A DNA stretch of 64,000 nucleotides from Escherichia coli (GTDB lineage: Bacteria; Pseudomonadota; Gammaproteobacteria; Enterobacterales; Enterobacteriaceae), in the NCBI GenBank assembly GCA_902500205.1, contig GCA_902500205.1_4868.1; one strand, given 5' to 3'. How positions within the stretch are numbered: the stretch's first letter is position 1; the number at the start of each line of letters is the position of its first letter. The position numbers and the translations under genes were made by a program. A model generated the notes under the pieces. That model was given only the letters and a program-made list of their open reading frames with translations, did not search any database and was not told the DNA's origin. Positions 22,338 to 38,056 of this stretch are shown one piece after another.

Positions 22338-22547
22338 TTACGCGTTTACGTAATAGATGGCGTTGCCGAACATTTTGTTGTTGCCGCCACAAGCGGTAAC
22401 TTTAAATGCTACGCCGCCTTCAGCTTCGGCTTTCTTAGCCAGCGCTTCGGTAACTTCGGTAACGGTGCTCAGTCCAGAAACCTGAACGGTGCCTGCTTCT
22501 ACCAGACCAGAAACGTCGCTGCCTGCGGTGATTTCACGAATGCTCAT
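22338..22547 (-). CDS. Small hypothetical protein (69 aa)
   Basis: ORF with GGAG RBS upstream by my reading; Ala/Gly/Val-rich; function unknown. Confidence 0.45.
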   Translation of the reverse strand: MSIREITAGSDVSGLVEAGTVQVSGLSTVTEVTEALAKKAEAEGGVAFKVTACGGNNKMFGNAIYYVNA

Positions 22548-22641
22548 TTACTTATCTCCATTAACAAATGATAGCAGAAGAACCCTATGTTCAACTACTT
22601 GTACTTCGAGGCATATTAACTGCCCCGACTCGTAAATTAGT

Positions 22642-22728
22642 TGACAATAAACCGGCTTTTGTGCGAAAAAAGTGGCTAACTGTGCACAAGCGATTCGGGT
22701 TATCGTTACAGTTAGGGGTTTATTGTCA
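22642..22728. repeat. 12-bp perfect inverted repeat pair (TGACAATAAACC ... GGTTTATTGTCA) in an intergenic region
   Basis: Copies at about 22642..22653 and 22717..22728, separated by about 63 bp, in the gap between two minus-strand genes. Confidence 0.4.
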
Positions 22729-22754
22729 CATTATACCCCACACACGTAAATAAC

Positions 22755-23687
22755 TTAGTGCGGTGTACTGGTGTCGTTGCCCGGACCATGGCCAGTATGT
22801 ACGTGAAGAGTAAAGGTGATGCCGCCGATAACCGATTCGGTAACTGTGAATGTGCCCTTACCTTCACCCTTGCCGTTATAGAGGAAATCTTTACCTACTT
22901 CCAGGTTACCGGTAAATAGATTCGTTGGACAATCGGTCTTCCAGTCTTCAGTCGTCCATGCCATGTTTTTCGACGCTGTAGAGTTGCGAGTTTCGCACTT
23001 CTCGTTAATCGTCTTTGTCTCGAGATTAATAGAACGTTTAGCATAAATGAAAGCGTCCTCTTTATTGATATTAATCTTCGACCGGCAGGCGTTTTCAAAC
23101 CCTAAATCATCCTCTGGAGAGTTGAGGTAGAACTTACGCCCTTCGTCATCCACCAACTGGCAAAACCCGTCACGGGTATTCAGCTGGAGCAGATACGCGT
23201 TTTTCTCACCGTTAGTCATACTGGTACGTAAAGTAACGTGACCATCCATCGGGGAGATATTCAGTACGTAGGCGTTAGAGAGGTCATCGGCCATCTGGTT
23301 TACTGGGTCAGCAGACCAGGCGTATACCCCATCTTCCAGTCGCTTAACGTTACTATTGTTTAAATCTTCCCAGAAGTACATATCGGTTTCACCGATACGC
23401 CAGATTCTTACGTAGTCTTCTTTTTTCACATCCGGAGGGTTAACCCGGTTGCTGTTGGACTTCATCCATTTTGCAGTGATGGCATTACCTTGCTTTACAG
23501 TAAGGTTGTCAGTACCACTTAAACTGTTGTGTTGCTTCTCTACAGGTGTCTCTGTTGCATCGACAGCTGTTGGATTAATAAAGTTAACTTCGATAGGGAT
23601 GACTTTAACTCGAGTGGCACCACGAGGTTTATCTTCCGCGACGATACCTATCGAGAAGATGTGCAACCCTGACTTAGATTTATTCAT
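22755..23687 (-). CDS. Hypothetical protein (310 aa)
   Basis: ORF track; ends with HVHTGHGPG; no confident family assignment. Confidence 0.55.
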   Translation of the reverse strand: MNKSKSGLHIFSIGIVAEDKPRGATRVKVIPIEVNFINPTAVDATETPVEKQHNSLSGTDNLTVKQGNAITAKWMKSNSNRVNPPDVKKEDYVRIWRIGETDMYFWEDLNNSNVKRLEDGVYAWSADPVNQMADDLSNAYVLNISPMDGHVTLRTSMTNGEKNAYLLQLNTRDGFCQLVDDEGRKFYLNSPEDDLGFENACRSKININKEDAFIYAKRSINLETKTINEKCETRNSTASKNMAWTTEDWKTDCPTNLFTGNLEVGKDFLYNGKGEGKGTFTVTESVIGGITFTLHVHTGHGPGNDTSTPH

Positions 23688-23867: not shown

Positions 23868-24185
23868 ATGTCTTTATTTCAAACCATTAAAAGTGCATTA
23901 GAGCGTAATGATGCAGACAGTGCCTTTACTGCGTTACAGAAAGCCAGTAACGGGAAGCTAGACAGCGTCTTTGCTAACAATCAAAGAATGCGCTTTTACA
24001 AAGTCGGGGAAGTAGACCAGTTCTACGACGAACTGTTTACGGGAGTAGTGCAAAGCGCGGTATACGCCATACCGACTGAACAATTAAGTCAGTTTGAAAA
24101 AGGGATGCGTTACCAGCGGTTAAGTAACGACTACTCATTACTGAATCTGGCTATCGATGACTGCATCGTACTGGTTGTATACTAA
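23868..24185 (+). CDS. Hypothetical protein (105 aa)
   Basis: ORF track; AGGAG-like RBS upstream. Confidence 0.5.
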   Translation: MSLFQTIKSALERNDADSAFTALQKASNGKLDSVFANNQRMRFYKVGEVDQFYDELFTGVVQSAVYAIPTEQLSQFEKGMRYQRLSNDYSLLNLAIDDCIVLVVY

Positions 24186-24192
24186 GTTTTTA

Positions 24193-24211
24193 CAGATAGA
24201 TGTCATCTTAG
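24193..24211 (+). promoter_or_regulatory. Recurrent motif copy 1 (cAGATAGATGTCATCTtag)
   Basis: Matches the consensus seen at six intergenic sites upstream of plus-strand genes. Confidence 0.35.
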
Positions 24212-24305
24212 TGAGCATTGTGTATAAACCCACAGTCGCTTAAACACCAACTGTTCTTTAGTAACAGTTTTTGGTCACTTTAGTGTACTTTAAAGGAAAT
24301 ACCAA

Positions 24306-25544
24306 ATGTATAACGAATACGAATTAGTTTACCAGACACCGAAAGAAGCATTCTTTAATGCAGTAATTACTAACTCAATTGTACTGTTGGGAATGCAGTT
24401 CAATATTCGGAGTATGGCTTACAGCGACGTAACGTGGCAGGATTGTGCGTGCCTGCCACAAAAGCTCTCAACCGTTGTCGAAAAGCGGCTGCTTGACAAA
24501 GGGGAAGTAAAGTGCCGTTTAGGCCACCACGTCTCTGACTTAGCGCCGTGGGTTGAATTAACCATGACATTCGAAGGGGATACGCGGGTAGCTTACCTAT
24601 CGGGTAATCAAAACATCGGACGCGCCATTGCTGAGGGTAACACAATGTGGGTGCACTACATTCTTACTCTGCTGATCGATAAACCGGTGTTCGAGTTAAC
24701 ACCAGACATGCCTACACTAAGCGATAGCAACTGGTGGACTGGCGGAGAGCTGAATACAGGGTTTAATGAGAAATTACAAAACTTTAATTCAGAGCGGCTT
24801 GATGTTGATGCGGAAGTGTTGGTGCAGCAGTTCCCCGAATTCACTGCGTACCAAATTACTACCGTATGGAATAGAGCGGTAAGCAAGCGCAGATTCTACA
24901 CGAAAAACGCACCGCGTGAAGCAGCCAAACCTGTGGAAATTGACGAAGAGACCAAGGAAGCACTGCGTGATCTAGTCACCATAGCCAATGATAGCAATAT
25001 GATGTTCTGGACATCTGATGAAAACGCTAACCATTATTTCGGTGAGATGTTAGACGCCGATGTTTGGTCAGTAATGCCGATAACAGAGCCAGGAAACCTT
25101 AAAGATTACTATAAGGTCGAAAAGGATGAGGTGGTTAATGAGAAAGTCCTCACTCTTCTTGCTGTTTTCCGCGAAGTTATCCAGTCAGAAATACTGTTAA
25201 GCATCTATAAACGCAAGACCCCGGCCAGTGAAAATGACACGGCGTGGGTATTTGACTGCCGACCGACAAATACAATATCGCCTGCGTTCTGGATACAGGT
25301 GACAGGAAAGCTGCAGCGTGTGAACAGTTATGTTGTTTCTCGCCTGCCAGATTCTGAAATGCGCTCCGTTGCCGAACCTGCTTATTTGATGTCGGCGAAG
25401 GCGGTACGGGATGCGTGGGGTACCAACGAACTGAAACAATGGCATTACGACGCTATCATCAAATGGGGTGTTAACAATGGCTGGAAAGAAGTGACTAAGT
25501 ACGGCCGTCAACTGTTGTTTGTCGCTGATTTGCGTTTACTGTAA
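24306..25544 (+). CDS. Hypothetical protein (412 aa)
   Basis: ORF track; no motif recognised. Confidence 0.6.
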   Translation: MYNEYELVYQTPKEAFFNAVITNSIVLLGMQFNIRSMAYSDVTWQDCACLPQKLSTVVEKRLLDKGEVKCRLGHHVSDLAPWVELTMTFEGDTRVAYLSGNQNIGRAIAEGNTMWVHYILTLLIDKPVFELTPDMPTLSDSNWWTGGELNTGFNEKLQNFNSERLDVDAEVLVQQFPEFTAYQITTVWNRAVSKRRFYTKNAPREAAKPVEIDEETKEALRDLVTIANDSNMMFWTSDENANHYFGEMLDADVWSVMPITEPGNLKDYYKVEKDEVVNEKVLTLLAVFREVIQSEILLSIYKRKTPASENDTAWVFDCRPTNTISPAFWIQVTGKLQRVNSYVVSRLPDSEMRSVAEPAYLMSAKAVRDAWGTNELKQWHYDAIIKWGVNNGWKEVTKYGRQLLFVADLRLL

Positions 25545-25554
25545 TCTCGTCATC

Positions 25555-25586
25555 GGGGGTCTTGTACCCCCTTCTTATTTTTTAAC
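25555..25586 (+). terminator. Probable rho-independent terminator
   Basis: Hairpin gggggt-cttgt-accccc followed by ttcttatttttt. Confidence 0.5.
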
Positions 25587-25604
25587 CGTAAAGAGTATTT
25601 AACC

Positions 25605-26186
25605 ATGCCACAACCAATTATTGAACAACATGAAATGAACTACGAAGAACTGACCCGCCGCTATCGCGTGAAAGCCCCACGGGTAGTAGAAGGTTGCGAG
25701 AAATACAAAGAAGCAGACTTCGTGGTATTCCAACGCGAAGGTGTTCCGATGTTGGTGTTCGTAAAACACGTCACCACCGATAACGACGACCGTCTAGTGA
25801 TGCTGTATAACGTGATGGCTACCGTACTAGATACTGATATTGGGTTGTTACGTCGTTATAAATCATCCTACGAACAAAAAGCGAAGGTGGTTGCTTTTGA
25901 CTTACCACGCACGGTACTAGTAGATGGTTCCCGTCCGGCTATTCTTCGTTTTACGAAAAGCGAAGACGACAGTAACCCAGCGCATACTGTTCAGCCACTA
26001 ACGCTGTCGCAAGATACGTTACAGCAGAACGGCGGGATGGATTGGCTAAACGTCATGTTACCGGGCCTAGCTGAAGGTCAGGAACTGCATCTGGTTTGCT
26101 ACACCCCATCCGTTGAGCACACCTATGCGCGTTACCTTACCGAAGAACACGGTTTCCGTAACCACCGTGGTATTTACATTGCGTAA
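25605..26186 (+). CDS. Hypothetical protein (193 aa)
   Basis: ORF track. Confidence 0.55.
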   Translation: MPQPIIEQHEMNYEELTRRYRVKAPRVVEGCEKYKEADFVVFQREGVPMLVFVKHVTTDNDDRLVMLYNVMATVLDTDIGLLRRYKSSYEQKAKVVAFDLPRTVLVDGSRPAILRFTKSEDDSNPAHTVQPLTLSQDTLQQNGGMDWLNVMLPGLAEGQELHLVCYTPSVEHTYARYLTEEHGFRNHRGIYIA

Positions 26187-26195
26187 GGTGAGTGT

Positions 26196-26759
26196 ATGTC
26201 CCGTTTACTAGAAATTCGAAACGATATCTGGCAAGAGCACATCCGCAACGATCCGGAGTGGGAAGGAGTTGAAAGTGATTTACCGGATAACCCCGACCAG
26301 CTGTTGGTGTTCCTTTATAGCGATAAAGCCAAACAGATCAAGGGGATATTTGAACGCAAAACGACAAGCTTGTCGACCTTACTGAGCTGCATTTGCTGTG
26401 GCGTCAGTGAGCTTGATCCCAATCTATTCACCAACTATCTTGCGCGTAAAGTCCGTACACCGCTACTGGAGGTTACACTCCCGCCAGATATTCGTATCAG
26501 TAAAACCGTACCGACCGTTTTGCGTTTACAGGATGTGTCTGGTAGTAGCGACGACGGGGAAACAACGATTACCCTTTCCTCGTCAGAGGGTGAACTCGCA
26601 ACCGAATCGTTTCTTAGCGAAGTCGAGGCCGGATTAAAGCAGGACGTAATCGTCTATAATCTCGGCGGTGTGCCCATTGAACCCATTTTACACTTCTTTG
26701 AAAGCCAAACCTGCCATCTTGTAGAAAGCTTAACATACCACTTTAAAGGAGCTTTATGA
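26196..26759 (+). CDS. Hypothetical protein (187 aa)
   Basis: ORF track. Confidence 0.55.
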   Translation: MSRLLEIRNDIWQEHIRNDPEWEGVESDLPDNPDQLLVFLYSDKAKQIKGIFERKTTSLSTLLSCICCGVSELDPNLFTNYLARKVRTPLLEVTLPPDIRISKTVPTVLRLQDVSGSSDDGETTITLSSSEGELATESFLSEVEAGLKQDVIVYNLGGVPIEPILHFFESQTCHLVESLTYHFKGAL

Positions 26760-27286
26760 TGAAACTCGAAGGCTACGTTGTTACTGATAAACCTTTTGCT
26801 GAAGCCAACCTGTCGCGTTCACAGGTTGTTTATAAAGACATCGATGTGCCTGCCGAAATCGTTAAAGCGAATCCCAGCTGGCTAATCAACCACGTTTCTT
26901 TGGAAATCACCAATCCGTTTATCAACGATCCAACCGACCCATTTGTCGACATGGGTAATTTCCGCGATATTCTTTCCCCGCATCAATACCAGACAGTGGC
27001 ACAGAAGAAAGGGAACTTGCTCACCGAAACGAATGAGTGGGAGCGTATCCAAGAGCGTCATCCTGAAAAGGGTTTAATGGAAATTTATCACCAACACCCT
27101 AAAGAGTTTGACAAATTACCCCTGTGGGCATCGGTGGCGTATAACTGCAGTGGGATATATGACCATCTGTTGCTGAGCGGATACGATGGCGCAATACACG
27201 CAGCCGAAGGCCCGCACACGCCGGTGACTGCTTATCACACATTTCACCCAGCGCGCATCACTTTCATCGAAACGTTGAGTGTGTAG
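26756..27286 (+). CDS. Hypothetical protein (176 aa)
   Basis: ORF track; start overlaps the upstream stop. Confidence 0.55.
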   Translation: MMKLEGYVVTDKPFAEANLSRSQVVYKDIDVPAEIVKANPSWLINHVSLEITNPFINDPTDPFVDMGNFRDILSPHQYQTVAQKKGNLLTETNEWERIQERHPEKGLMEIYHQHPKEFDKLPLWASVAYNCSGIYDHLLLSGYDGAIHAAEGPHTPVTAYHTFHPARITFIETLSV

Positions 27287-27291
27287 TTTAT

Positions 27292-27332
27292 CTCCAGTAA
27301 CCACGAGGGTTACTGGAGTCCTCTTATTTTTT
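27292..27332 (+). terminator. Rho-independent terminator
   Basis: Hairpin ctccagtaacc-acgagg-gttactggag followed by a T-run. Confidence 0.65.
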
Positions 27333-27365
27333 ACACTTAACTCAAATTAATTTGAGGTGTGGTAT

Positions 27366-27953
27366 ATGACAGAACGTATTTTACGACTGCAAGAGAACAG
27401 GTTAGAAGACCTGCACGTAATGCGTAGTCGTGGCTTGTTTCCGGTGGGGCTTGATGTGAGTGGATTATTAACTGCCGCAGAGCACGGGGACAAGGTCATT
27501 ACAATGCATTCACGTGGGAACGAAGTGGTCTCTGCGATTTTCATCGATAAGGTTATTCCGGACTCGGAAAGTGGTAAGGTGGCGGGACACATCATTTACG
27601 AATACTTTCGCAGCATTCTATACGAGGAAAAGATAAATGTCAAAACTTTTATGGAGTACGCTAAGCGAAATAACTACATCGATGCGCGACTGATGGTCAC
27701 GGAAGGCACCCCAACTATAAACGGTAAAGTCCACCATCGTTTACTTGGAGCACAGTTGCCGAGACTAGGCGAGATACCAACGACGATAGAGCTGCACCAA
27801 AAAACAGATTGGCGACACAAAATCGAAGTGCTTCACAAGCTTTACGATTTATCGATCGTTCAAATCAAACTGGTGGACTTTACGCCTGCAAATATGCAAA
27901 TCGCTAAGCGCGCGTTGGGTTTTCGTATTCTTAACACAACCTTCACATTGTAA
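27366..27953 (+). CDS. Hypothetical protein (about 195 aa)
   Basis: ORF track 27357..27953; the first codon lies inside the GAGGTG RBS, so ATG at 27366 (MTERIL) is preferred. Confidence 0.55.
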   Translation: MTERILRLQENRLEDLHVMRSRGLFPVGLDVSGLLTAAEHGDKVITMHSRGNEVVSAIFIDKVIPDSESGKVAGHIIYEYFRSILYEEKINVKTFMEYAKRNNYIDARLMVTEGTPTINGKVHHRLLGAQLPRLGEIPTTIELHQKTDWRHKIEVLHKLYDLSIVQIKLVDFTPANMQIAKRALGFRILNTTFTL

Positions 27954-27958
27954 AATAT

Positions 27959-27979
27959 CTCAGATATATATTACCTAGG
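27959..27979 (+). promoter_or_regulatory. Recurrent motif copy 2 (ctCAGATATATATTACCTAGG)
   Basis: Degenerate match to the recurrent motif; contains the palindrome ATATCTCAGATAT. Confidence 0.3.
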
Positions 27980-28003
27980 TGAGAGTTAAGAGATTAACTC
28001 AAT

Positions 28004-28032
28004 GGCTACCTTCGGGTAGCCTATTCTTTTTT
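28004..28032 (+). terminator. Rho-independent terminator
   Basis: Hairpin ggctacc-ttcg-ggtagcc followed by a T-run. Confidence 0.65.
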
Positions 28033-28057
28033 AAACCAATCGACTATAGAGTAAAAC

Positions 28058-28459
28058 ATGACTATCAAGAAGTTCTTACAAACAGTAGTAGTTCTGGCCG
28101 CATGTGGCATCGCAGCAACTTATGCTTTCGATAAGCCAGACGTGACTGAATACGTATCTGCGGATTCCGATTACGGTATTGCACCGAATGAAAAACCGGA
28201 ACTGATGCGTGAGGTCGAACAGTTACAAATCTACAAACTGACGGATGGTAAGAACTGCACAGGGCTGGTTATCGCTGATAAGAAACTGAAAATGTATCAG
28301 CGATTAACCGACATATCGTGCGATCAACCAAAAGTCACTTCGGTCAGCGTATCGCCGTTGGAATTACCAGATCTGGTTGCTGTGAGTTTTTATCACAACG
28401 ATGTGCTCGTTGGTCGCATCACCCTCATTCGTGGAGATATCAAAAATGAAATGCAATAA
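28058..28459 (+). CDS. Small secreted protein or lipoprotein (133 aa)
   Basis: N-terminal signal peptide with possible lipobox (VLAAC); two further Cys. Confidence 0.55.
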   Translation: MTIKKFLQTVVVLAACGIAATYAFDKPDVTEYVSADSDYGIAPNEKPELMREVEQLQIYKLTDGKNCTGLVIADKKLKMYQRLTDISCDQPKVTSVSVSPLELPDLVAVSFYHNDVLVGRITLIRGDIKNEMQ

Positions 28460-28937
28460 CGTTAATCACCACTTGGCCAAAGTGGTGCTTTTTACTGTGC
28501 TGTTGATGGCACTTGTTGTTGGGCTACGGATTTCTAAGGCGCACGCTGACGAATTCAGCGGGTTCCAGGGCAGTATTAACGGCAGCATTCCAGCATATAC
28601 CCGCACCATCAATCTTAATGATAAGCCGTTCTGGTGCAATGCGCGTAAGCTGCTTAAGAAACAGTGTCGTGTAGTTGACATATCCTTCAACGGACGTGTC
28701 GCTATCGTACACCGTCCGGGCGATAAAGATTGCCCAGGTGGTTGGTGGGGTGCAGTCGACCGTCACAACGGTGACGCGTTATGGCTTATCCCTAATCGTG
28801 ATGAACTATCAGTGGAGAAAATTTGCAGCAAAGATTTCAGGGCCGGTTTTGTACAGCGACCTGATACCAAAACTCTGGCCTCCATCGCTATGTACTACGG
28901 TATGGAAACCATCAAAACAATCGACTATTCAGAATAA
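28446..28937 (+). CDS. Small secreted Cys-containing protein, paralog 1 (about 163 aa)
   Basis: Start moved to MKCNNVN; signal peptide; motif FWCNARKLLKKQC...DCPGGWWG resembles the next two genes. Confidence 0.5.
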   Translation: MKCNNVNHHLAKVVLFTVLLMALVVGLRISKAHADEFSGFQGSINGSIPAYTRTINLNDKPFWCNARKLLKKQCRVVDISFNGRVAIVHRPGDKDCPGGWWGAVDRHNGDALWLIPNRDELSVEKICSKDFRAGFVQRPDTKTLASIAMYYGMETIKTIDYSE

Positions 28938-28959
28938 CTCAAAAAATTGAGGTGCTATT

Positions 28960-29370
28960 ATGAAACATTTTTTATTACCAGTTTTACTTGCTACTCTGGC
29001 CATTAGCTTCTTCGCTCGTGCTGGAAGTATCGAGTTACCAAAAGTTGTTAACGATCACGAATACGGCGGAGAGTTCTGGTGCCAGAACTCTGACGTACAA
29101 GGCGGTAGCTGCCAGATCGTTGCGATGTCCGATAACAACCGTTACCTGTTAGTGAAAACGATGGGCGGTGTCGCATGTGGCGACCCTGAATACGGGGTTA
29201 TTAACATGGCAACCGGGCAAGCCGAATCCATGAACTATAATGATAACCAAGCCTGCAGTGGTGAAGCCGTTGCTGAGTTTACACGCGACCCAGGCGACAA
29301 TGCCCTGACGGTTATCATGTACGACCCTACGATTAAGAAAAACGTAGGCATCAATAAACTCGACTTTTAA
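28960..29370 (+). CDS. Small secreted Cys-containing protein, paralog 2 (136 aa)
   Basis: Signal peptide MKHFLLPVLLATLAISFFARA; motif FWCQNSDVQGGSC...ACGDPEYG. Confidence 0.55.
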   Translation: MKHFLLPVLLATLAISFFARAGSIELPKVVNDHEYGGEFWCQNSDVQGGSCQIVAMSDNNRYLLVKTMGGVACGDPEYGVINMATGQAESMNYNDNQACSGEAVAEFTRDPGDNALTVIMYDPTIKKNVGINKLDF

Positions 29371-29383
29371 GTAAGGAAACAAC

Positions 29384-29767
29384 ATGCGTGGATTTATGGG
29401 TATTATCGCGGCGGTGTTCTTGACCGCTTCCGCTTCAGCTACAACCAGCGTAGAAGATTTACTGCCGGGCACACCGTATCAGTACAACCCGCCTTCATTC
29501 GAAGTCTGTACTGGCGACGATGGCAGATGTGAAGAAGTCAGCCGTCACGACGAGTATATCCTGGTCCACGCAAAGGGCGAGGAAACTTGTCCGGCTGGTT
29601 ACTACTTCTTGTTGAACTCAAAGGCACAAGAGATTGTGCCGGTAGAGACAATAACGTGCGACCCGACGCTTCGCGCGTCGCTCGCTTACAATACGAAAAC
29701 CAAACAGCGCCTCCTGGTTATTGAACAACAAGGCGAAGTGCGTGGTTCAATAGCGCTCGACCAGTAA
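29384..29767 (+). CDS. Small secreted Cys-containing protein, paralog 3 (127 aa)
   Basis: Signal peptide; motif EVCTGDDGRCEEV...TCPAGYYF. Confidence 0.55.
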   Translation: MRGFMGIIAAVFLTASASATTSVEDLLPGTPYQYNPPSFEVCTGDDGRCEEVSRHDEYILVHAKGEETCPAGYYFLLNSKAQEIVPVETITCDPTLRASLAYNTKTKQRLLVIEQQGEVRGSIALDQ

Positions 29768-29779
29768 CCGAAAAGTTTT

Positions 29780-29801
29780 CAGACAGATGTTATAACGTGA
29801 G
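29780..29801 (+). promoter_or_regulatory. Recurrent motif copy 3 (CAGACAGATGTTATAACgtgag), overlapping a downstream hairpin
   Basis: Motif match; immediately followed by an 8-bp-stem hairpin gtgagatg-acgaccc-catctcac. Confidence 0.35.
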
Positions 29802-29896
29802 ATGACGACCCATCTCACTTTGGCCCTGCGGTGATTTCCCCAACACTTAGCCGCAGGGTCCTTTTTAATCGACTATTACCCGTAAGGATTAAGCAA

Positions 29897-30397
29897 ATGA
29901 ACATGAACATTCTCGACGATACCCGTTCTTCTTTCTTTACTCAGATGAACGTTAACCCTGAACGTACCCGTGCTATTCTTTCTACTGGTTGGAAGTTGAA
30001 GTTGTTAGGCGAGTTAACCCTCAATCGCACCGACTGGCCAGCAGAAGCAACCGTACTGATTAACAGCATTCACAGCGAGTGGCTAGATGCTGCGTTGAAT
30101 GCCCCACAACTACGTCCGTACTATCGGATGCTTCACGCGGGATATGAAGTATACCGCAAAGGTTGGTACGATGCAGCCACATATTGCAACATCCCTGGAG
30201 GTCGTGAAGACAACACCGTCGACCACGTATTAGTGAATAACTTCTGGGGCGACCAAATTGAGGTCTTACAACTCTCTACCGGTGACCGTATTCCGGCCTG
30301 TGAGTTATTCGAAACTAACGCACAAATGTACGAACCGTATGCAATGATTCGTGGCCATAAGGTCCCAATCATTTCCCTTATGCATATGGGGCTGTAA
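29897..30397 (+). CDS. Hypothetical protein (about 166 aa)
   Basis: ORF track 29831..30397; start moved to ATG with AAGGA RBS (MNMNILDD). Confidence 0.55.
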   Translation: MNMNILDDTRSSFFTQMNVNPERTRAILSTGWKLKLLGELTLNRTDWPAEATVLINSIHSEWLDAALNAPQLRPYYRMLHAGYEVYRKGWYDAATYCNIPGGREDNTVDHVLVNNFWGDQIEVLQLSTGDRIPACELFETNAQMYEPYAMIRGHKVPIISLMHMGL

Positions 30398-30405
30398 ATA
30401 CGAGA

Positions 30406-30434
30406 GGTAGCCTACGGGCTACCTTCTTTTTTTG
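30406..30434 (+). terminator. Rho-independent terminator
   Basis: Hairpin ggtagcc-tacg-ggctacc followed by a T-run. Confidence 0.65.
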
Positions 30435-30451
30435 TTGAAGAAGGATTAAAC

Positions 30452-31078
30452 ATGAACGAGATTACCCTGATTCGTTTCATCGACGACATGGTGACGTGTC
30501 AGAAAGCGAATCGTCGGGATACCAAACTGCGTATCAATCTGATGGAAGAAGAGGTAGAAGGGTTTCTGGAATACCCGCGATTGGTGAAGTGGTTTAAAGA
30601 AGCACTGCCGCGTAGCTGGGAACAGCTAGAAGCGTGGTTTGCTCTACCTATTGCAGAACGTAACCCTAACAATACGATCTTTACCGGAACCACTGCATTA
30701 GATTTGGCTGGTTCGGTGGAGCAACCTAAACGTTTGGTTTTCTTCTACGTCAATGGCGATTCAATAATGGCTGATACAGTTAACTGGATTTCTGATGAGT
30801 TGACTGTAAACACCACTTTGGTCGGTAGCGCTGCTGATGCCTGGGTTGTTGGTCAGCACCAATCGCAACCGTACGAAGAAATCAAAACCGGTTATTTAAT
30901 CCCGATATATCTCGACGGCGTGGCACCCGGTCGTAGTGCCGAACTGTTCAAATTCCTGCTTACTGAAACGTTAAAGGTTGTCGATTCTGATGCCGGGCGG
31001 GCGTGGTATGAATTAACCAAAGAGCGCACCGATAGTTTTTGGGAATCACTCGGACACCGTAAGTTTATTCCGCAATAA
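30452..31078 (+). CDS. Hypothetical protein (208 aa)
   Basis: ORF track; no metallophosphoesterase (Mre11/SbcD) motifs seen. Confidence 0.55.
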   Translation: MNEITLIRFIDDMVTCQKANRRDTKLRINLMEEEVEGFLEYPRLVKWFKEALPRSWEQLEAWFALPIAERNPNNTIFTGTTALDLAGSVEQPKRLVFFYVNGDSIMADTVNWISDELTVNTTLVGSAADAWVVGQHQSQPYEEIKTGYLIPIYLDGVAPGRSAELFKFLLTETLKVVDSDAGRAWYELTKERTDSFWESLGHRKFIPQ

Positions 31079-31089
31079 CTCTCCTCTCT

Positions 31090-31121
31090 GGAACCCTTCG
31101 GGGTTCCATTTCTTCTTTTTT
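31090..31121 (+). terminator. Rho-independent terminator
   Basis: Hairpin ggaaccc-ttcg-gggttcc followed by a T-run. Confidence 0.7.
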
Positions 31122-31174: not shown

Positions 31175-33685
31175 ATGCTCAAGGTCGAACGTATCATTTT
31201 GAAAGGATTTACCGGCATGGGGTTACATGAAATCGAAACGTTTGATTTCACCCTTAAGTCAACCGTTACCATCATCCTCGGTGGCAACGGCTGCGGTAAA
31301 ACAAGCCTCCTATCTGTTTTTCTCCCCTTAGCTCCAGCAAAATCAGAATTCCGTGAAGGTGGTTCCTACACTAACTACGCGTTAGTTGGGGACGACCGTC
31401 TTAAGTTTGAAGTCCTGCGTCGTGGCTCTTCTCTGTCTTGTAGTATCTTCAACATCACTAAAGGTGTCTCCGTCGTAGACTCGGTAAACGCCAAAGTTTA
31501 CAACTCCATGGTGGAACAGTTAACCGGGATCACCAAAGAAATCAAAGAGTTAATTAACGGTGAAACCTTATTAACAGACGCCACCACTGAAGTTCGTCGT
31601 AAATGGTTTACGTTAATGTCAGAATCTGATCTGACGTACGTTGTTGGTTGTTATCGTCGTCTGCGTAAACTCGCTTCCAGTTTAAGTGGGGCCATTGAGC
31701 ACACCGGCCGTAAAATCGGTGAGGCAAAAATGCGCGTGGTGGACGATGAAGAAGATCGTGCACGTTTGGAAGTTCGTTTGAAAGAACTGGACGTTGAGCT
31801 TCAGGAACTAAACCGCACCATTGAAGCGAGACCCGGTTTAGATAACGCCGTTTCGGTTGATAGTATCCGGAAACGCATTGCTTCGTTGCAACCGGCCGTA
31901 AAACTCATTATAGAGCGTTATGGTGTTCTGCCTTCTGACGAACTGATTAACGAGTTTCAAAGTCGTGTAGTTGCCTGGCGTGAGCAAGCTGCCTCTGCTG
32001 AAACTGAATGCAACATGTACAATAAAGAGTTGTCACAGCTACTGGATGAGGAGTCGCGTCAAGCGTATCTGATGCGCAACCATACCGGTCTAAAACAAAC
32101 AATCGACAGCTTAAAACAGGAACTGGCAACGTTCCAACAGAACTGGATGTTCCCGGCTCTGTTTGAAGGCACCCGCATCGATGTGGATAGCATTCAGAAC
32201 GCGTTAAACGATGCCTGTAACTGGAATTTACCGTTGTCCATGCATCTGGACCAGTTAAAGACAACAGAGCGCCTGGGAGCGTTAGAGAAGCGTTTACAGG
32301 GTATGGATTTAACCTCTGCGGGTCTATCTGAAAAGCTGCAACGTTGTGAGAATGTGCTACACGGTTTATACCACGACCGTCAACACTTCTTAGAAACTGC
32401 AGAAGTTGATTGTCCACAGTGTAACCACCGTTTCCGTCCTGGGATTCGTAAGTCGTTACCTGAAATTGAAAAGGCCATCAACGATAATGAAGGTTGGAAG
32501 AAGCAGCTGAAAGACGAAATGGATAGTCTTTTGCGTGACCGCAAAGAGATTGAAGAGGACGTCCGTAGCTTACGTACGATTCGCGAAATCGTCATGTCGT
32601 ATTCCAATCATCCCGTTGTCGGTTTGTTTTTCCGTAAACTGCAGGAGCTGGATATCTTCACCACGGCGCGGGATCGTTACGGTGCCATTGCACGTGCCTT
32701 TACTGAAGAGTTAGATTCGGCCATGATGTATCTGCGTCAATCGGCGAAGCTTGCAACAGCGGAACGGGAATGGCAAGAGGCTGTTGCCGCAGTAGGTAAC
32801 GTTGATGGTGCGCTGAGCCAGAAAATTGAACATATCCGTTCACAACTGGATGGGGCTAACCGTCGACTGATAGAATACCGCAGACAAGCCAATGTGCTGG
32901 AACGCGAAACCACCCAACTGCAACAAACCAAAGAAGCAATCGAACGTTTCCAAAAGGGCTACGAACATCTGGTATCGGAAATGAACATCTCCGTTAACAA
33001 CGTCGTGGTTCGCGAGTTGTTAAACCGACGCGAAGCGAAGCTCGATGCGTACACTTCCGCTCGTGAACGGTTTCGTCAAATGGAAGGGGCTATTGCACGT
33101 TTAGCGGAACTGGAAAAAGAGCAAGCTGAGTTGCTCAAAGAACACCATCATGCCAGATTGATTATCAATGCCGTCTCCCCCGAAAAAGGATTATTGCGTC
33201 GTTACTTTTATGCTGCGATTACACGCATCATGGATTTAATGAATCGGTATATCGAAATGGTGTGGGCATATCCGATGCAGGTTATTCCGTGCGATTTAAC
33301 CGACGGGGATTTGGATTACACATTCCCGGTACGATTAAAAGACCATGAAGAACTGGTACCTGACGTGAAGAAAGGTTCGAAGGCACAGCGTATCATTTTC
33401 AACATGATGTTTCGTTTAACGGCGTATAAAGCACTTGGTTTACAAAATTATCCTTTGTTATTGGATGAACCCTCTGAAGGCATGGATGAGGAACACAAAA
33501 ATCGACTGGTCAACTTCATTAAATCGTTGGCGTTGTCGGGAGAGTTTTCTCAATTGCTGGTCGTTTCGCATGAAGCGGAAGTTCATTCTAAACTTAACGA
33601 AGCCACCTACTGTGTCGTGGAGCCAGAAGGTGTAACGCTTCCACCGGTTTATAACGAAGGGGTAATAATCAAATATGCATCATAA
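31175..33685 (+). CDS. SbcC/Rad50-like SMC-type ATPase (836 aa)
   Basis: N-terminal Walker A GGNGCGKTS; long central coiled-coil with a CPQC zinc-hook-like motif; C-terminal signature-like SKAQR, Walker B LLLDEP and H-loop VVSHEA. Confidence 0.8.
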   Translation: MLKVERIILKGFTGMGLHEIETFDFTLKSTVTIILGGNGCGKTSLLSVFLPLAPAKSEFREGGSYTNYALVGDDRLKFEVLRRGSSLSCSIFNITKGVSVVDSVNAKVYNSMVEQLTGITKEIKELINGETLLTDATTEVRRKWFTLMSESDLTYVVGCYRRLRKLASSLSGAIEHTGRKIGEAKMRVVDDEEDRARLEVRLKELDVELQELNRTIEARPGLDNAVSVDSIRKRIASLQPAVKLIIERYGVLPSDELINEFQSRVVAWREQAASAETECNMYNKELSQLLDEESRQAYLMRNHTGLKQTIDSLKQELATFQQNWMFPALFEGTRIDVDSIQNALNDACNWNLPLSMHLDQLKTTERLGALEKRLQGMDLTSAGLSEKLQRCENVLHGLYHDRQHFLETAEVDCPQCNHRFRPGIRKSLPEIEKAINDNEGWKKQLKDEMDSLLRDRKEIEEDVRSLRTIREIVMSYSNHPVVGLFFRKLQELDIFTTARDRYGAIARAFTEELDSAMMYLRQSAKLATAEREWQEAVAAVGNVDGALSQKIEHIRSQLDGANRRLIEYRRQANVLERETTQLQQTKEAIERFQKGYEHLVSEMNISVNNVVVRELLNRREAKLDAYTSARERFRQMEGAIARLAELEKEQAELLKEHHHARLIINAVSPEKGLLRRYFYAAITRIMDLMNRYIEMVWAYPMQVIPCDLTDGDLDYTFPVRLKDHEELVPDVKKGSKAQRIIFNMMFRLTAYKALGLQNYPLLLDEPSEGMDEEHKNRLVNFIKSLALSGEFSQLLVVSHEAEVHSKLNEATYCVVEPEGVTLPPVYNEGVIIKYAS

Positions 33686-33866
33686 AGGTTGGCGCTTATG
33701 GGCTTGGTGGGGTTTTCAGTTCCTTCAGTTTGTTGTGATGGTACTGTACCTCTCCTTTTGTGCAACCGTAGTGGTTATCGCTGCGGTCGTTTATTTAGCT
33801 GCTGCTCTTAAAGAACGTCTGTTCGACACGCGTTGTGAGTGGCGAGATATAGGAGAACGGACATGA
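33675..33866 (+). CDS. Small membrane protein (63 aa)
   Basis: Hydrophobic helix FQFLQFVVMVLYLSFCATVVVIAAVVYLAAAL; overlaps the end of the ATPase gene. Confidence 0.4.
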   Translation: MHHKGWRLWAWWGFQFLQFVVMVLYLSFCATVVVIAAVVYLAAALKERLFDTRCEWRDIGERT

Positions 33867-33953
33867 TTGAAGGTATCGTATTAACCGGTATTGCACTGTG
33901 GTTGATTCGTGGTGCCTGGGGTTGGATTATCCGCACGAAAGGATGGGCATTCC

Positions 33954-34157
33954 ATGGCAAGACGTAAACCTGGTCGTTTAAAGTTTTGGGCAGTTGTGGT
34001 AATGCACACTGTGGTGCTACTCGGTATTTTCATGTCTCGCGCTACGCCTGCCTTTTGGGGCTTAGTTGTTTTGGTGTTCTTAGAAGGGGTTTACTTCGGT
34101 AATCTGTGGAGCAAGCCCCCGCGTTTAAGGGACCCGGCTTATGACAGTCGTGAATAG
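33954..34157 (+). CDS. Small membrane protein (about 67 aa)
   Basis: ORF track 33909..34157; internal start MARRKPG preferred; two hydrophobic segments. Confidence 0.4.
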   Translation: MARRKPGRLKFWAVVVMHTVVLLGIFMSRATPAFWGLVVLVFLEGVYFGNLWSKPPRLRDPAYDSRE

Positions 34158-34272
34158 TGTCAACGCAGCCATGATTGCAACAGGTGCGTATGATGGTGCC
34201 ACCTGGACAGACCTTGGCATTACGATTATCATCTGTGCAATCGGAGCATTTCTGGCATCATGGTTATTTTAG
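34141..34272 (+). CDS. Possible very small hydrophobic protein (43 aa)
   Basis: My own reading of an ORF below the track length cutoff (MTVVNSVNAAMIATGAYDGATWTDLGITIIICAIGAFLASWLF). Confidence 0.25.
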   Translation: MTVVNSVNAAMIATGAYDGATWTDLGITIIICAIGAFLASWLF

Positions 34273-34810
34273 TGAAGTGGGTTGGGTGTATCATCTGTAG
34301 TCTGGTACTAGGAGCAGGCGCATACGCCCTAGGCGCAATCCTTGCATTGACGCAAGGTTGGTTTTAACAGGAGGGTAGTTACGAAGTGGGAGAAGTATCA
34401 TGTAACAGTGAAACAGTCTCTGATCCCGTGGTCGTGGGTTCAGGGGCGGCCGTGCCAACCCGGCGTATCGTTCTTTCGAGCGCGGGGATGGCTATAGGGT
34501 CTTCAAAGAACCTTCTAGCAGACATCGCGGAAGTCTGCGGGCCGGATGATTTTGCAGTTTCACGTACAGTCGGGGAAGACTGGCGTGGTAATCAGAAGCG
34601 CCATGAGCGAATGTGGCGACGGAAGGTTACCTCAGCATCGCAGCGTTTTCAACGACGTTGTTGATCAAAGACACGGTTCCGATAGAGAACTGGTCTTTAC
34701 CTGCAGCGGTATACACCGCTTAAGTTTACCGGTAAACTTAAGAAAACACAAACGCAATTCTTCGTTACTCGCTTTCATCGCAGGTGAAAGCTCACTTAGG
34801 AATTCAGCTC

Positions 34811-35299
34811 ATGGCCGAAATTGTCATTCTTTCCTCATCTTCAGATTTAACGGAAGCACAAAATAAACAGCTGTTGGGGCTGCATTATAAATTTCTGAAC
34901 CACCAACGTACCATACTCCATATCGAAAAAGGTGAGATTCCGAACCTCACTCTGGAGAAACTGTTGGCGGGGAACCGTGCTTGTGTTGCTCTGGAAGGGG
35001 GTACCCCTGTTGGTTACTGTTTGTATCGCGTAATCGCTGGGGTTCTGAAGATTCGTACGATGTTCGTGTCTGAAATGGCACGCCGTCGCAAAACGATGAC
35101 GCAGATTTTTGATGCGCTTGATGTGAATGAACGGTTCACCAGTGCGCATGGGGGAATATACGCTTGCCAGGAAGCTGGTATTGCGTTCTTTACCGCTCGC
35201 GGTTTTGACAAGACCGTCTCTACCGACGGACAATGGCTTGAATTTACGAAGCAGGTTCTTGCGGAAGCAGATGAACCTTTAAGGACTGCGGTAGCATAG
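34811..35299 (+). CDS. Hypothetical protein (about 162 aa)
   Basis: ORF track 34784..35299; internal start MAEIVIL preferred; no confident motif. Confidence 0.5.
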   Translation: MAEIVILSSSSDLTEAQNKQLLGLHYKFLNHQRTILHIEKGEIPNLTLEKLLAGNRACVALEGGTPVGYCLYRVIAGVLKIRTMFVSEMARRRKTMTQIFDALDVNERFTSAHGGIYACQEAGIAFFTARGFDKTVSTDGQWLEFTKQVLAEADEPLRTAVA

Positions 35300-36535: not shown

Positions 36536-36784
36536 ATGCAAAAAACAATCATCGGAATAATGGTTGGTTCTTTCTGTGGCTTCCCTACCCCACAAACAGA
36601 ACCCCAATATTTGGGCGCAGGCAAACCTGATCCGGAAGTCCGTAAGTTGCGCGAAGAAGCAAAAGCCAGAGTTCTTACTGAGCTGGAATCGCTGCTTCAG
36701 TCTCCGGTTATTTCACAATGGGGTATGGCAATAGATGTCACTAGAACTGATCGACGAGGCTATTATCTCCCACGACCTGTTTAA
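36536..36784 (+). CDS. Hypothetical protein (82 aa)
   Basis: ORF track. Confidence 0.5.
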   Translation: MQKTIIGIMVGSFCGFPTPQTEPQYLGAGKPDPEVRKLREEAKARVLTELESLLQSPVISQWGMAIDVTRTDRRGYYLPRPV

Positions 36785-37235
36785 CGCGCCTGAGCGCTTC
36801 AAGGTCGTTACAGTTAACTGTGTTGGTGCGATGGGAAGGGGCATTGCCTTGGCGTGCCGAGAACGCTTCCCATCGCTTTATAACGACTATCGCCAGAAAT
36901 GTCGTAAAGAGCAAATCGTTATCGGTGAGGTCTATTGTTATCCTGAGGAAGGGGTAATACTCCTTCCTACTAAAACCCATTTTCGCTATAAATCGCAGAT
37001 TTACTATGTCACGTCCGGCATTGATGCGCTGGCGCGACTAGGGGAAGACTTAGAAGGAGGGATTGCGATACCGCCCCTAGGGATGGCTAACGGTTGGTTA
37101 CGTTACCATGAGCGATTGGAAATCTTTATACACTTACAGAAACGACTACAGCACACGGAGCAGACTTATCGATTCTATTTACCAGACACCCTGCTGAGGG
37201 AAGCAGAGAAAATCATCCCAAAAAGTTTCAAATAG
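36735..37235 (+). CDS. Macro-domain-like (ADP-ribose-binding or -processing) protein, tentative
   Basis: VVTVNCVGAMGRGIALA resembles the macro-domain N-terminal motif (V-N-A-A-N ... G-G-G-V ... A-I), and IAIPPLGMANG resembles the macro F-P-A-I-S-T-G motif; by-eye comparison only. Confidence 0.45.
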   Translation: MSLELIDEAIISHDLFNAPERFKVVTVNCVGAMGRGIALACRERFPSLYNDYRQKCRKEQIVIGEVYCYPEEGVILLPTKTHFRYKSQIYYVTSGIDALARLGEDLEGGIAIPPLGMANGWLRYHERLEIFIHLQKRLQHTEQTYRFYLPDTLLREAEKIIPKSFK

Positions 37236-37250: not shown

Positions 37251-37333
37251 CACATTACAAAGGAGCACAATGCCGTCCGCGCCGTCTTCCCGGATTGGGA
37301 ACGGAAAAGTATAAATCCGTTTGGAGAACATCC

Positions 37334-38056
37334 ATGTTTCGCACCATTTTATTTCTTCTGGTAGCAGTGACCACATTCAACAGCAACGCTTCTTACCAGT
37401 CCACCAGTAACAAACATCAAAAAGAATTTGTCCTTATCCAGGACCAGTTCAATGAGATTAAACCTCTCATCGTCTCTGCATCTCAAAAGCAAGGTGTACA
37501 TGCCGGGATGCTTGCGACCACCATTTACCGTGAATCCCGTTTTAATAAAAACGTGGGTAAGAATAAATCGAGCAGTGCTAGTAGTGTTGTCCAAATGACG
37601 ACAGGCACTAAACGCTCCATGATACGTCTGTATGGGAAACAACTTAACATCCCAAAGAACGCAGACCTTAATAAACCGAAATATGCTGTACAGCTTGCTG
37701 CTGTTTACATGAAACACATCGAGGATCATCTGACAAAACAACTCAAACGCAAGCCGAGCACAGCCGAAATCGCATTAGGCTACCGCTTCGGTGAGAGCGC
37801 TGCTGTTGCGATGATTAAAAAGAAATCATCGGTCGGGAAACGCTGGATGGACAGCTACCGAAAAGACGCAGCATTCTACGGTGCGAAAATGACGCCACCG
37901 AAAGCTGAAACACGTCAGCTTGCTTTTGCGAAGGAAGACCGCGACCAACACGTCGCTGAGCTTCAGAAAATCTGGGATACGCTGTACAGCAAAGTATCAC
38001 CTGCGGCCGGTACATTACTGGCAAATAACACTATCATGAAAGGAGCATTGCTTTGA
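37334..38056 (+). CDS. SLT-domain lytic transglycosylase with N-terminal signal peptide (about 240 aa)
   Basis: Signal-like N-terminus MFRTILFLLVAVTTFNSNA; catalytic-region motif TTIYRESRFN...SSVVQMTTGT matches the family-1 lytic transglycosylase E-S ... Q pattern; start moved from track 37295. Confidence 0.6.
   Translation: MFRTILFLLVAVTTFNSNASYQSTSNKHQKEFVLIQDQFNEIKPLIVSASQKQGVHAGMLATTIYRESRFNKNVGKNKSSSASSVVQMTTGTKRSMIRLYGKQLNIPKNADLNKPKYAVQLAAVYMKHIEDHLTKQLKRKPSTAEIALGYRFGESAAVAMIKKKSSVGKRWMDSYRKDAAFYGAKMTPPKAETRQLAFAKEDRDQHVAELQKIWDTLYSKVSPAAGTLLANNTIMKGALL

Follow-up and report, generated by a model that had tools for sequence, protein, structure and literature searches.

The gene at positions 31175 to 33685 of the window (the whole 64-kb stretch of DNA that was analysed) very probably encodes the Rad50/SbcC ATPase subunit of a phage Mre11-Rad50 (SbcCD-like) end-processing complex, the nuclease subunit of which is encoded far away. 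The window derives from an SPN3US-like jumbo phage; it shares 98.4% nucleotide identity with Escherichia phage vB_EcoM_EC001 (EC001), and the divergence of the phage from deposited relatives is about 1.6-3.5% at the nucleotide level. The gene is the ortholog of SPN3US gp186 (RefSeq ACQ60_gp080) and of phiKZ ORF165. In SPN3US, gp186 (SbcC) is essential, gp27 is named SbcD, and the two genes are "drastically separated" (Thomas et al. 2016, PMC5105663). Likewise, phiKZ orf165 tolerates zero transposon insertions, and jumbo phages near-universally carry SbcC and SbcD. The SbcC-like gene and its split from SbcD are already known, and the finding is real but ordinary. A reading made from the sequence only had presented the protein as a possible orphan ATPase; because the split gene arrangement is already published, the novelty implied by that reading is lost.

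A divergent SbcC-like ATPase

The gene and the motifs located in its product are as follows.

31175..33685, + strand: SbcC/Rad50-like ATPase gene, 836 aa; ORF with ATG start (phrog_77, PDB and fold matches)
31280..31303, + strand: Walker A / P-loop GGNGCGKT, aa 36-43 (regex; homolog conservation)
32411..32422, + strand: CPQC, putative zinc hook at the coiled-coil apex, aa 413-416 (homolog conservation; AF2)
33374..33388, + strand: degenerate ABC signature GSKAQ, replacing LSGGQ/E, aa 734-738 (alignment; conservation)
33452..33487, + strand: Walker B and D-loop PLLLDEPSEGMD, aa 760-771 (regex)
33566..33574, + strand: H-loop / switch SHE, aa 798-800 (conservation; alignment)

Profile searches against PHROGs match the 836-aa protein to phrog_77, 'SbcC-like subunit' (E=3.6e-95, 321 bits). 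The top PDB match by sequence is P. furiosus Rad50, and the top fold match of the predicted structure is C. thermophilum Rad50 (7zr1, E=2.7e-17). Amino acid identity is 99.6% with the EC001 protein and 99.3-99.6% with proteins of the SPN3US group. The protein falls below the curated family thresholds: it scores 29.4 bits against the cut-off of 40 of Pfam SMC_N, and 40-57 bits (best 56.7 vs 1087) against the cut-offs of 700-1087 of the NCBIfam Rad50/SbcC equivalog models. It is a member of a divergent clade of phage proteins, and phrog_77 is the sole family model that captures it.

Motif positions were assigned by regex, and conservation was assessed across 16 homologs with identities down to 29%, among which the Walker A, CPQC, signature-like, Walker B/D-loop and H-loop motifs are invariant or near-invariant. 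Residues G36, N38, G39, G41 and K42 of the Walker A motif are present in 16 of 16 homologs, and the motif aligns with the Rad50 P-loop GQNGSGKS. At the other end of the chain, the signature GSKAQ aligns with P. furiosus Rad50 GGERIALGLAFRL; G734, S735, A737 and Q738 are invariant, and more distant homologs carry GSDSQ, GSKGQ or SSTGE. The Walker B/D-loop PLLLDEPSEGMD, with invariant D764, E765 and D771, aligns with Rad50 LLILDEPTPYLD, and the H-loop (S798 and H799 invariant) with Rad50 VSHD. The protein thus has the bipartite ABC head of the Rad50/SbcC family, Walker A being N-terminal and the signature, Walker B, D-loop and H-loop C-terminal, with a signature that is degenerate. C413 and C416 of the CPQC motif are likewise invariant (16/16) and sit near the protein midpoint, aa 418; in all six more distant homologs, including those of the phiKZ-like phages KEN51, Goslar, Ea35-70 and 201phi2-1, a CxxC also falls no more than 10 residues from the midpoint.

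The AF2 model (mean pLDDT 82.4) places an N-terminal beta-rich lobe at residues 1-127 and a C-terminal alpha/beta lobe at 674-836. Between these head halves the model predicts the long antiparallel coiled coil expected of Rad50/SbcC proteins, formed by long helices at 138-407 and 428-667 with a small beta hairpin at CPQC, flanked by helices 367-407 and 428-476. Low-confidence breaks at 290-302 and 536-548 are roughly symmetric around the apex. Conservation and the modelled hairpin agree on a CxxC hook at the apex in place of an SMC hinge, the zinc hook itself being putative. The sequence-only reading had proposed an SbcC/Rad50-like protein with a split ABC-ATPase head and a coiled coil bearing a CPQC hook, and each element is borne out by the motif, profile and fold results.

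The neighbourhood and the probable distant nuclease partner

The other features of the window that bear on a partner are these.

30452..31078, + strand: upstream 208-aa gene, no nuclease partner (profile searches)
31089..31108, + strand: terminator-like hairpin and T-run between the 208-aa gene and the SbcC-like gene (consensus scan only; no evidence of function)
33675..33866, + strand: 63-aa membrane ORF, ortholog of SPN3US gp187 (hydrophobic segment aa 12-50)
33909..34157, + strand: tiny membrane ORF (hydropathy)
34141..34272, + strand: tiny membrane ORF (hydropathy)
43341..44060: DEDD/Rv2179c-type exonuclease, no metallophosphoesterase (Pfam/PHROGs)
44060..45574: RNase H-domain protein, no metallophosphoesterase (Pfam/PHROGs)
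51208..52701, + strand: UvsX/RecA-like recombinase (phrog_97 'UvsX-like recombinase', E=2.8e-55; same label in SPLA3)

The genes around the SbcC-like gene are phage genes of unknown function. The upstream 208-aa protein matches only phrog_9964 (function unknown, E=1.6e-80); it has no match in Pfam, NCBIfam or PADLOC and none to the SbcD-family HMM. When that HMM was run on every ORF in the six frames of the window, the best E-value was 2.1, compared with 3.5e-139 and 2.9e-126 for the positive controls, and a regex for phosphoesterase motifs I-III found nothing in the six frames, although it worked on its positive controls. We also considered neighbouring and mid-size ORFs as hidden nucleases and rejected them, as Pfam and PHROGs searches of 19 window ORFs gave no metallophosphoesterase. 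Rfam and tRNA scans of the window found nothing.

Three tiny, strongly hydrophobic proteins follow the gene. The 63-aa ORF overlaps the SbcC stop codon region by 11 nt and appears to be translationally coupled to the SbcC-like gene; an earlier study raised the possibility that the protein 3' of SPN3US SbcC is analogous to T4 gp47.1 (Thomas et al. 2016, PMC5105663). The other two ORFs resemble Asesino gp209 and gp210. We rejected the downstream membrane proteins as parts of the system: the 63-aa ORF is retained 3' of the SbcC-like gene in the close clade (Asesino, CR5) and missing there in KEN51, Goslar and Ea35-70. Given that they are confined to the close clade, they are treated as lineage-specific neighbours.

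In the relatives EC001, SPN3US and SPLA3, an SbcD-like protein is encoded far from the SbcC-like gene. The gene is intact in EC001 (382 aa) and in SPN3US, and the SPLA3 copy is split by duplication. In the closest relatives the distance is about 144-147 kb in record coordinates, or about 90 kb if the map is taken as circular, and therefore the partner lies outside a 64-kb window. In each of the 12 phage genomes compared, 83 kb or more separates the two genes. Among phiKZ-like phages, 301 records contain the SbcD-like protein and 300 the SbcC-like protein, and the organism counts of the two agree. A cognate Mre11/SbcD is accordingly found in the same genome in EC001 and SPN3US, beyond the stretch that corresponds to the window; given that relatives 96-98% identical carry it, the window phage should encode the partner in its own genome as well.

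The SPN3US-type SbcD-like protein alone has no match in Pfam and none in the PDB by phmmer, so that a family profile and structure prediction were needed for its identification. The protein matches phrog_100 (E=1e-52), 20 of 27 family members match Pfam Metallophos, and the best match of the family profile is T. maritima Mre11 (E=4e-10), followed by P. furiosus Mre11 and E. coli SbcD. The motifs D-x-H, GDxxD, GTPSHD, HG and GHxH are invariant in the family, giving the five motifs of calcineurin-like phosphoesterases, and little or no variation is seen at D22/H24, G57-D58-D61, H180 and H212/H214. Motif III departs from the canon as GTPSHD, in which Ser aligns with the usual Asn. In the AF2 model (pLDDT 91.1, pTM 0.81) the protein has the Mre11-type fold, phosphoesterase plus capping domain, that sets this family apart from other metallophosphoesterases. 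All of the best 18 PDB matches by fold are Mre11/SbcD (E=4e-14 to 3e-8), led by E. coli SbcD (E=4.1e-14, TM 0.61); the next family follows at about 1e-5, and LpxH and polymerase small subunits at E=4e-5 or worse. At its C-terminal end the modelled monomer also forms two helices, 356-363 and 371-381, in the region that binds Rad50 in Mre11 proteins. Family profile and predicted fold thus confirm an Mre11/SbcD-family nuclease, the activity of which is predicted.

The sequence-only reading was accurate within the window: the upstream 208-aa gene is no metallophosphoesterase, no SbcD-like gene lies elsewhere, tiny membrane proteins directly follow, no partner is adjacent, and the ATPase motifs are confirmed. 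At the level of the genome the term orphan does not hold, since the closest relatives encode the nuclease at a distance. That reading had offered three options, of which EC001, SPN3US and SPLA3 bear out the partner encoded elsewhere in the genome; with an SbcD-like protein of the relatives' own, nothing requires a host nuclease or a non-canonical role.

Proposed mechanism and alternative readings

How might the pair act? The two ATPase half-domains at the chain ends would fold together into one ABC head, with the roughly 540 residues between them forming an antiparallel coiled coil, and one zinc ion should bridge the CxxC at its tip to that of another molecule. The nuclease subunit would be the divergent Mre11/SbcD-family metallophosphoesterase, ortholog of SPN3US gp27. 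By analogy with T4 gp46/gp47, the assembled complex would resect double-strand ends, and the resected ends would let the UvsX-like recombinase (51208..52701) start recombination-dependent replication and repair. The recombinase, not linked to the SbcC-like gene, is a likely downstream user of such ends, on the T4 gp46/47-UvsX model. Given the degenerate GSKAQ and the Ser-for-Asn change in Mre11 motif III, the catalytic competence of the pair is only putative. From these resemblances we infer that the subunits physically associate, that the hook binds zinc, that the partner acts as a nuclease and that the pair serves in this pathway.

The same divergence could mean that the Mre11-Rad50 of the SPN3US clade is mechanistically atypical, with tethering to the membrane or the phage nuclear shell and with altered ATP or metal chemistry. 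The signature GS[KTA]AQ, the invariant Ser-for-Asn and two-residue insertion in motif III GTPSHD, a coiled coil that exceeds that of T4 by about 300 residues, the apparent translational coupling of the 63-aa membrane protein and the further tiny membrane proteins 3' of the gene would be its basis; we regard it as unlikely.

A role as an SMC/condensin-like organiser of phage DNA, with no part in end processing, is very improbable. The sub-threshold Pfam SMC_N match, the presence of Smc5/6, condensin and MukB among the fold matches (E=1e-13 to 1e-11) and the database labels 'SMC domain-containing protein' and 'Chromosome partition protein Smc' are consistent with it, but Rad50 is the top match by both sequence and fold, and the apex is predicted to be a hairpin of some 20 residues that bears the CxxC, with no globular hinge of the SMC type. 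Furthermore, the gene strictly co-occurs with an Mre11-like nuclease, and Pfam and PHROGs searches of the neighbours give no kleisin-like partner.

Is the protein then a true orphan, a Rad50-like ATPase that recruits SbcD or some other nuclease from the host, or works with none at all? The window holds no metallophosphoesterase, and the hosts, E. coli and Salmonella, encode SbcCD, both of which would suit this reading. Against it, every close relative has an Mre11/SbcD-family protein of its own, and SbcC-like and SbcD-like genes co-occur in about 300 phage genomes. Other phiKZ-like phages replicate within a phage nucleus; should that hold for this phage too, nucleases of the host would likely be kept out. 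We therefore consider it very improbable.

Very improbable too, and rejected, is a defence or counter-defence ATPase of the SMC family, Lamassu LmuB-like, Wadjet-like or other: the PADLOC LmuB models do match aa 192-805 (E=1.2e-19) and Lamassu and JetC structures are among the fold matches, but the 69 bits for LmuB are far under the 321 bits for the phage SbcC-like family, PADLOC detects no LmuA, JetA, JetB or JetD-like neighbour, there is no Lamassu LmuA/LmuC operon (neither the upstream 208-aa protein nor the SbcD-like protein has a PADLOC match), the similarity to LmuB, JetC and DndD in defence-system models is only at superfamily level, LmuB itself being described as Rad50/SMC-like, and a gene that is essential and core in the phage family fits poorly with an accessory defence module.

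Comparison with known systems and significance

The Mre11-Rad50 reading places the gene among known phage pairs. SPN3US gp186 and gp27 represent the same gene and its partner, with an 836-aa product of about 95.7 kDa, the 63-aa transmembrane ORF 3' of the gene and an unlinked SbcD all alike; in phiKZ, ORF165 and the SbcD-like PHIKZ_p19 are the corresponding pair. We find no substantive difference between these pairs and the window phage. T4 gp46/gp47 (Rad50/Mre11) are alike in being an essential, phage-encoded pair that feeds a UvsX-type recombinase, with a split ABC head and a small transmembrane protein gene nearby. In contrast, T4 keeps its two genes in a cluster. The SbcC-like protein exceeds gp46 by about 300 residues in the stretch that links the two ATPase halves, and BLASTP does not detect any resemblance to the T4 proteins (Thomas et al. 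2016, PMC5105663). E. coli SbcCD and archaeal and eukaryotic Mre11-Rad50 share the architecture and fold of both subunits, the CxxC hook and the five phosphoesterase motifs. Unlike these cellular complexes, the phage pair forms no operon, stays below the thresholds of curated cellular models, and carries GSKAQ for LSGGQ/E in the signature and GTPSHD for GNHD/E in motif III. Lamassu LmuB and SMC proteins have in common with the phage ATPase an SMC-superfamily head and a coiled coil, whereas the phage ATPase has no hinge or defence partners.

The finding has little consequence beyond correct annotation of the SbcC-like gene. It exposes mislabels in public records, namely "SMC domain-containing protein", "Chromosome partition protein Smc" and, on the C subunit, "SbcCD subunit D". 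For enzymologists who study Mre11-Rad50, the way in which the motifs of the two subunits diverge might be of interest. Because functionally linked genes are routinely scattered in phiKZ-like jumbo phages, apparent 'orphan' subunits are to be expected in windows on their genomes.

A divergent phage member of the Rad50/SbcC family

By DNA similarity, the window falls within the SPN3US group of jumbo phages (genus Seoulvirus); the 4 kb around the SbcC-like gene share 98.4% nucleotide identity with Escherichia phage vB_EcoM_EC001 (EC001) and 96.5% with Salmonella phage SPN3US. The ATPase motifs and the central CPQC described in the sequence-only reading are all present in the gene product, at the following positions.

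The SbcC-like gene and the motifs of its protein
31175..33685, + strand: SbcC-like gene, ORF of 836 aa
aa 36-43: Walker A, GGNGCGKT
aa 413-416: CPQC (chain midpoint, 418)
aa 734-738: signature-like GSKAQ
aa 760-771: Walker B and D-loop, PLLLDEPSEGMD
aa 798-800: H-loop, SHE

We find that the motif residues are invariant in 16 homologs with identity down to 29%, and that six remoter homologs (phiKZ-like KEN51, Goslar, Ea35-70, 201phi2-1, CR5 and Asesino) likewise have a central CxxC. The Rad50 signature motif of the phage family reads GS[KTA]AQ, as against LSGGQ/E. The AlphaFold2 model (mean pLDDT 82.4) comprises a beta-rich N-terminal lobe, long helices at 138-407, a short hairpin at the CxxC, long helices at 428-667 and a C-terminal alpha/beta lobe, with low-confidence breaks at 290-302 and 536-548, about symmetric around the apex. 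The protein is matched by phrog_77 (SbcC-like, E=3.6e-95), both halves of its head find P. furiosus Rad50 as best PDB match by sequence, and its best fold match is C. thermophilum Rad50 (E=2.7e-17), with Smc5/6, condensin, LmuB, MukB and JetC ranking behind. Because it stays under the curated cut-offs of cellular models (Pfam SMC_N, 29.4 vs 40; NCBIfam Rad50, 56.7 vs 1087), it represents a divergent phage clade of the Rad50/SbcC family. Its SPN3US ortholog, gp186 (95.7 kDa; phiKZ homolog ORF165), is reported as the SbcC subunit and is essential by amber mutant; its inter-domain region exceeds that of T4 gp46 by about 300 residues (Thomas et al. 2016, PMC5105663).

Record labels for the gene vary. 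The EC001 and SPN3US records give "putative SMC domain-containing protein" (RefSeq ACQ60_gp080), and SPLA3 gives "SbcC-like subunit of palindrome specific endonuclease". Among OQ383623.1, MT679221.1 and LR535921.1, two call it 'nuclease SbcCD subunit D' and the third 'Chromosome partition protein Smc'; these labels are wrong for this protein. Several SPFM phage genomes (LR535901.1, LR535905.1 and others) align to the region only as 40 short pieces of about 99% identity, with just 4-11% of the query covered by their predicted proteins, a pattern that suggests numerous errors of sequencing or assembly in these records.

Genes and sequence around the SbcC-like gene

The tiny membrane proteins noted directly after the gene are encoded by real ORFs, the first of which has an 11-nt overlap with the SbcC stop codon. 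Directly downstream of SPN3US gp186, gp187 is a 63-aa transmembrane protein that recalls T4 gp47.1 (PMC5105663). Since Asesino and CR5 have similar ORFs after the gene and KEN51, Goslar and Ea35-70 do not, the adjacency is clade-specific, and nothing in the analysis shows a functional tie to the complex. Another tiny hydrophobic ORF, under the 40-aa listing cut-off (34277..34367, end ...ALTQGWF*), is similar both to Asesino gp210 and to the C-terminus of the 43-aa ORF 34141..34272, and its own end is overlapped by a terminator-like hairpin (34340..34357). The approximately 415 bp that separate the tiny ORFs from the acetyltransferase gene (34368..34783) are without a convincing long ORF and matched no Rfam family, and the RNA of 34273..34783 is more stably folded than shuffled controls (z=-3.77). 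The block shared here with Erwinia phage Asesino corresponds to a small peptide rich in arginine, which is gp211 (37 aa) in Asesino and, in the window, a frame with the end ...WRGNQKRHERMWRRKVTSASQRFQRRC* at 34664. Further downstream neighbours (34784..35299, 36735..37235 and 37295..38056) include a GNAT acetyltransferase, a macro-domain protein and an SLT-type transglycosylase, which have no relation to the SbcC finding.

On the other side, a divergently oriented gene annotated 'baseplate assembly protein' directly adjoins the SbcC-like gene in KEN51 and Ea35-70 (phiKZ-like), and 201phi2-1 has at this position gp249, annotated only as phiKZ gp164 homolog. The window ortholog (22755..23687, - strand; E=4e-30 against the KEN51 and 7e-31 against the Ea35-70 protein) lies 7.5 kb away, and the roughly 13 small ORFs of unknown function between them (23868..31078) look like accessory genes that were inserted specifically in this lineage. 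Three adjacent small ORFs, 28401..28937, 28960..29370 and 29384..29767, have hydrophobic N-termini and are weak mutual paralogs (BLASTP E=1e-6 and 2e-4).

An SbcD-like partner encoded far from the ATPase gene

The sequence-only reading had found no Mre11/SbcD partner nearby or elsewhere in the window, and this holds, since ORF profiles, a motif regex and a family HMM all failed to recover one. The upstream 208-aa protein gave no informative match in profile searches including Pfam, PHROGs, PADLOC and NCBIfam, and the only nucleases among 19 profiled ORFs were the following.

Nucleases among the profiled ORFs
43341..44060: DEDD/Rv2179c-type exonuclease
44060..45574: RNase H-domain protein

Phosphoesterase motifs I-III were found in no frame of the window, and the SbcD-like family HMM gave E>=2.1 there (positive controls, 3.5e-139 and 2.9e-126). 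That the ATPase is an orphan is thus true of the window only, because the partner is encoded elsewhere in the genome in EC001 (22415..23563, 382 aa, intact; SbcC-like gene at 167474..169981), SPN3US (21017..22165, intact; 168900..171410) and SPLA3 (annotated at 32863..33921; 179807..182317). In SPLA3 it is broken by a local tandem duplication of about 100 nt repeating IVDVIREVLISCENTLDAFYIAGDLFDDSRH (OR413581.1 32679..33921), yielding a 353-aa ORF and an upstream 71-aa ORF that holds the N-terminus with motif I; either the gene is truly disrupted or the split is an artefact of assembly. Thomas et al. 2016 (PMC5105663) report SPN3US gp27 as the SbcD subunit and describe its gene and that of gp186 as "drastically separated". 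The phiKZ gene is PHIKZ_p19, between ORF064 and ORF066.

Searched alone, the SbcD-like protein had no match in Pfam or by PDB phmmer; searched singly, 20 of 27 family members matched Pfam Metallophos. The 27-member profile matches T. maritima Mre11 (E=4e-10), including the chain of Mre11:Rad50 entry 3qg5, followed by P. furiosus Mre11 and E. coli SbcD. In the alignment (n=27), D22/H24, G57-D58-D61, G97-T-P-S-H-D102, H180-G181 and H212/H214 are fully or almost fully conserved. Motif III, GTPSHD in 27/27 members, aligns to G--NHD of T. maritima Mre11, with Ser at the canonical Asn place and a two-residue insertion. A confident AF2 model (pLDDT 91.1, pTM 0.81) has only Mre11/SbcD proteins among its 18 top PDB fold matches, the best being E. 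coli SbcD in the SbcCD complex (E=4.1e-14, TM 0.61); other phosphoesterases, such as LpxH, match only at about 1e-5.

Co-occurrence and proposed role

By tblastn, 301 phage records contain the SbcD-like protein and 300 the SbcC-like one, and organism counts, grouped by first word of organism name, agree.

Records with SbcD-like and SbcC-like proteins, respectively
Pseudomonas: 81, 81
Erwinia: 62, 62
Salmonella: 35, 35
Vibrio: 23, 22
Serratia: 21, 21
Aeromonas: 19, 19
Klebsiella: 16, 16
Ralstonia: 13, 13

In all 12 genomes with both positions readable (SPN3US, EC001, SPAsTU, Kwan, CR5, KEN51, Ea35-70, VP4B, USC-1, FishSpeaker, AH04 and Yong MS31), 83 kb or more separates the genes, also when the map is taken as circular; for SPN3US the distance is 147 kb by record coordinates and 90 kb in the opposite direction. 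SbcC and SbcD are described as practically universal among jumbo phages (Iyer et al. 2021, PMC7824862), phiKZ orf165 received zero insertions in a transposon screen (PMC12676376) and is among the entries of an antisense-oligomer essentiality screen (PMC12571901).

Recruitment of a host nuclease by the ATPase is an unnecessary assumption, since the phage probably encodes its own partner. A Lamassu-like defence role draws on the LmuB match, a similarity at superfamily level only: it scores 69 bits vs 321 bits for phrog_77, no effector gene is a neighbour, and such a role clashes with the core, essential status of the gene. An SMC/condensin role is contradicted by an apex that is a CxxC hairpin, not a hinge, and by strict pairing with an Mre11-like gene.

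An SbcC-like gene with a far-off partner is already in print, and the interest of the present case is accordingly low. In the best-supported reading, the products of the two unlinked genes would assemble a canonical Mre11-Rad50-type end-processing complex, in which the CPQC may serve zinc-hook dimerisation and the SbcD-like subunit may supply the nuclease chemistry. This complex would feed the UvsX-like recombinase encoded in the window, as T4 gp46/47 does.

Recombinase gene of the window
51208..52701: UvsX-like recombinase (phrog_97, E=2.8e-55)
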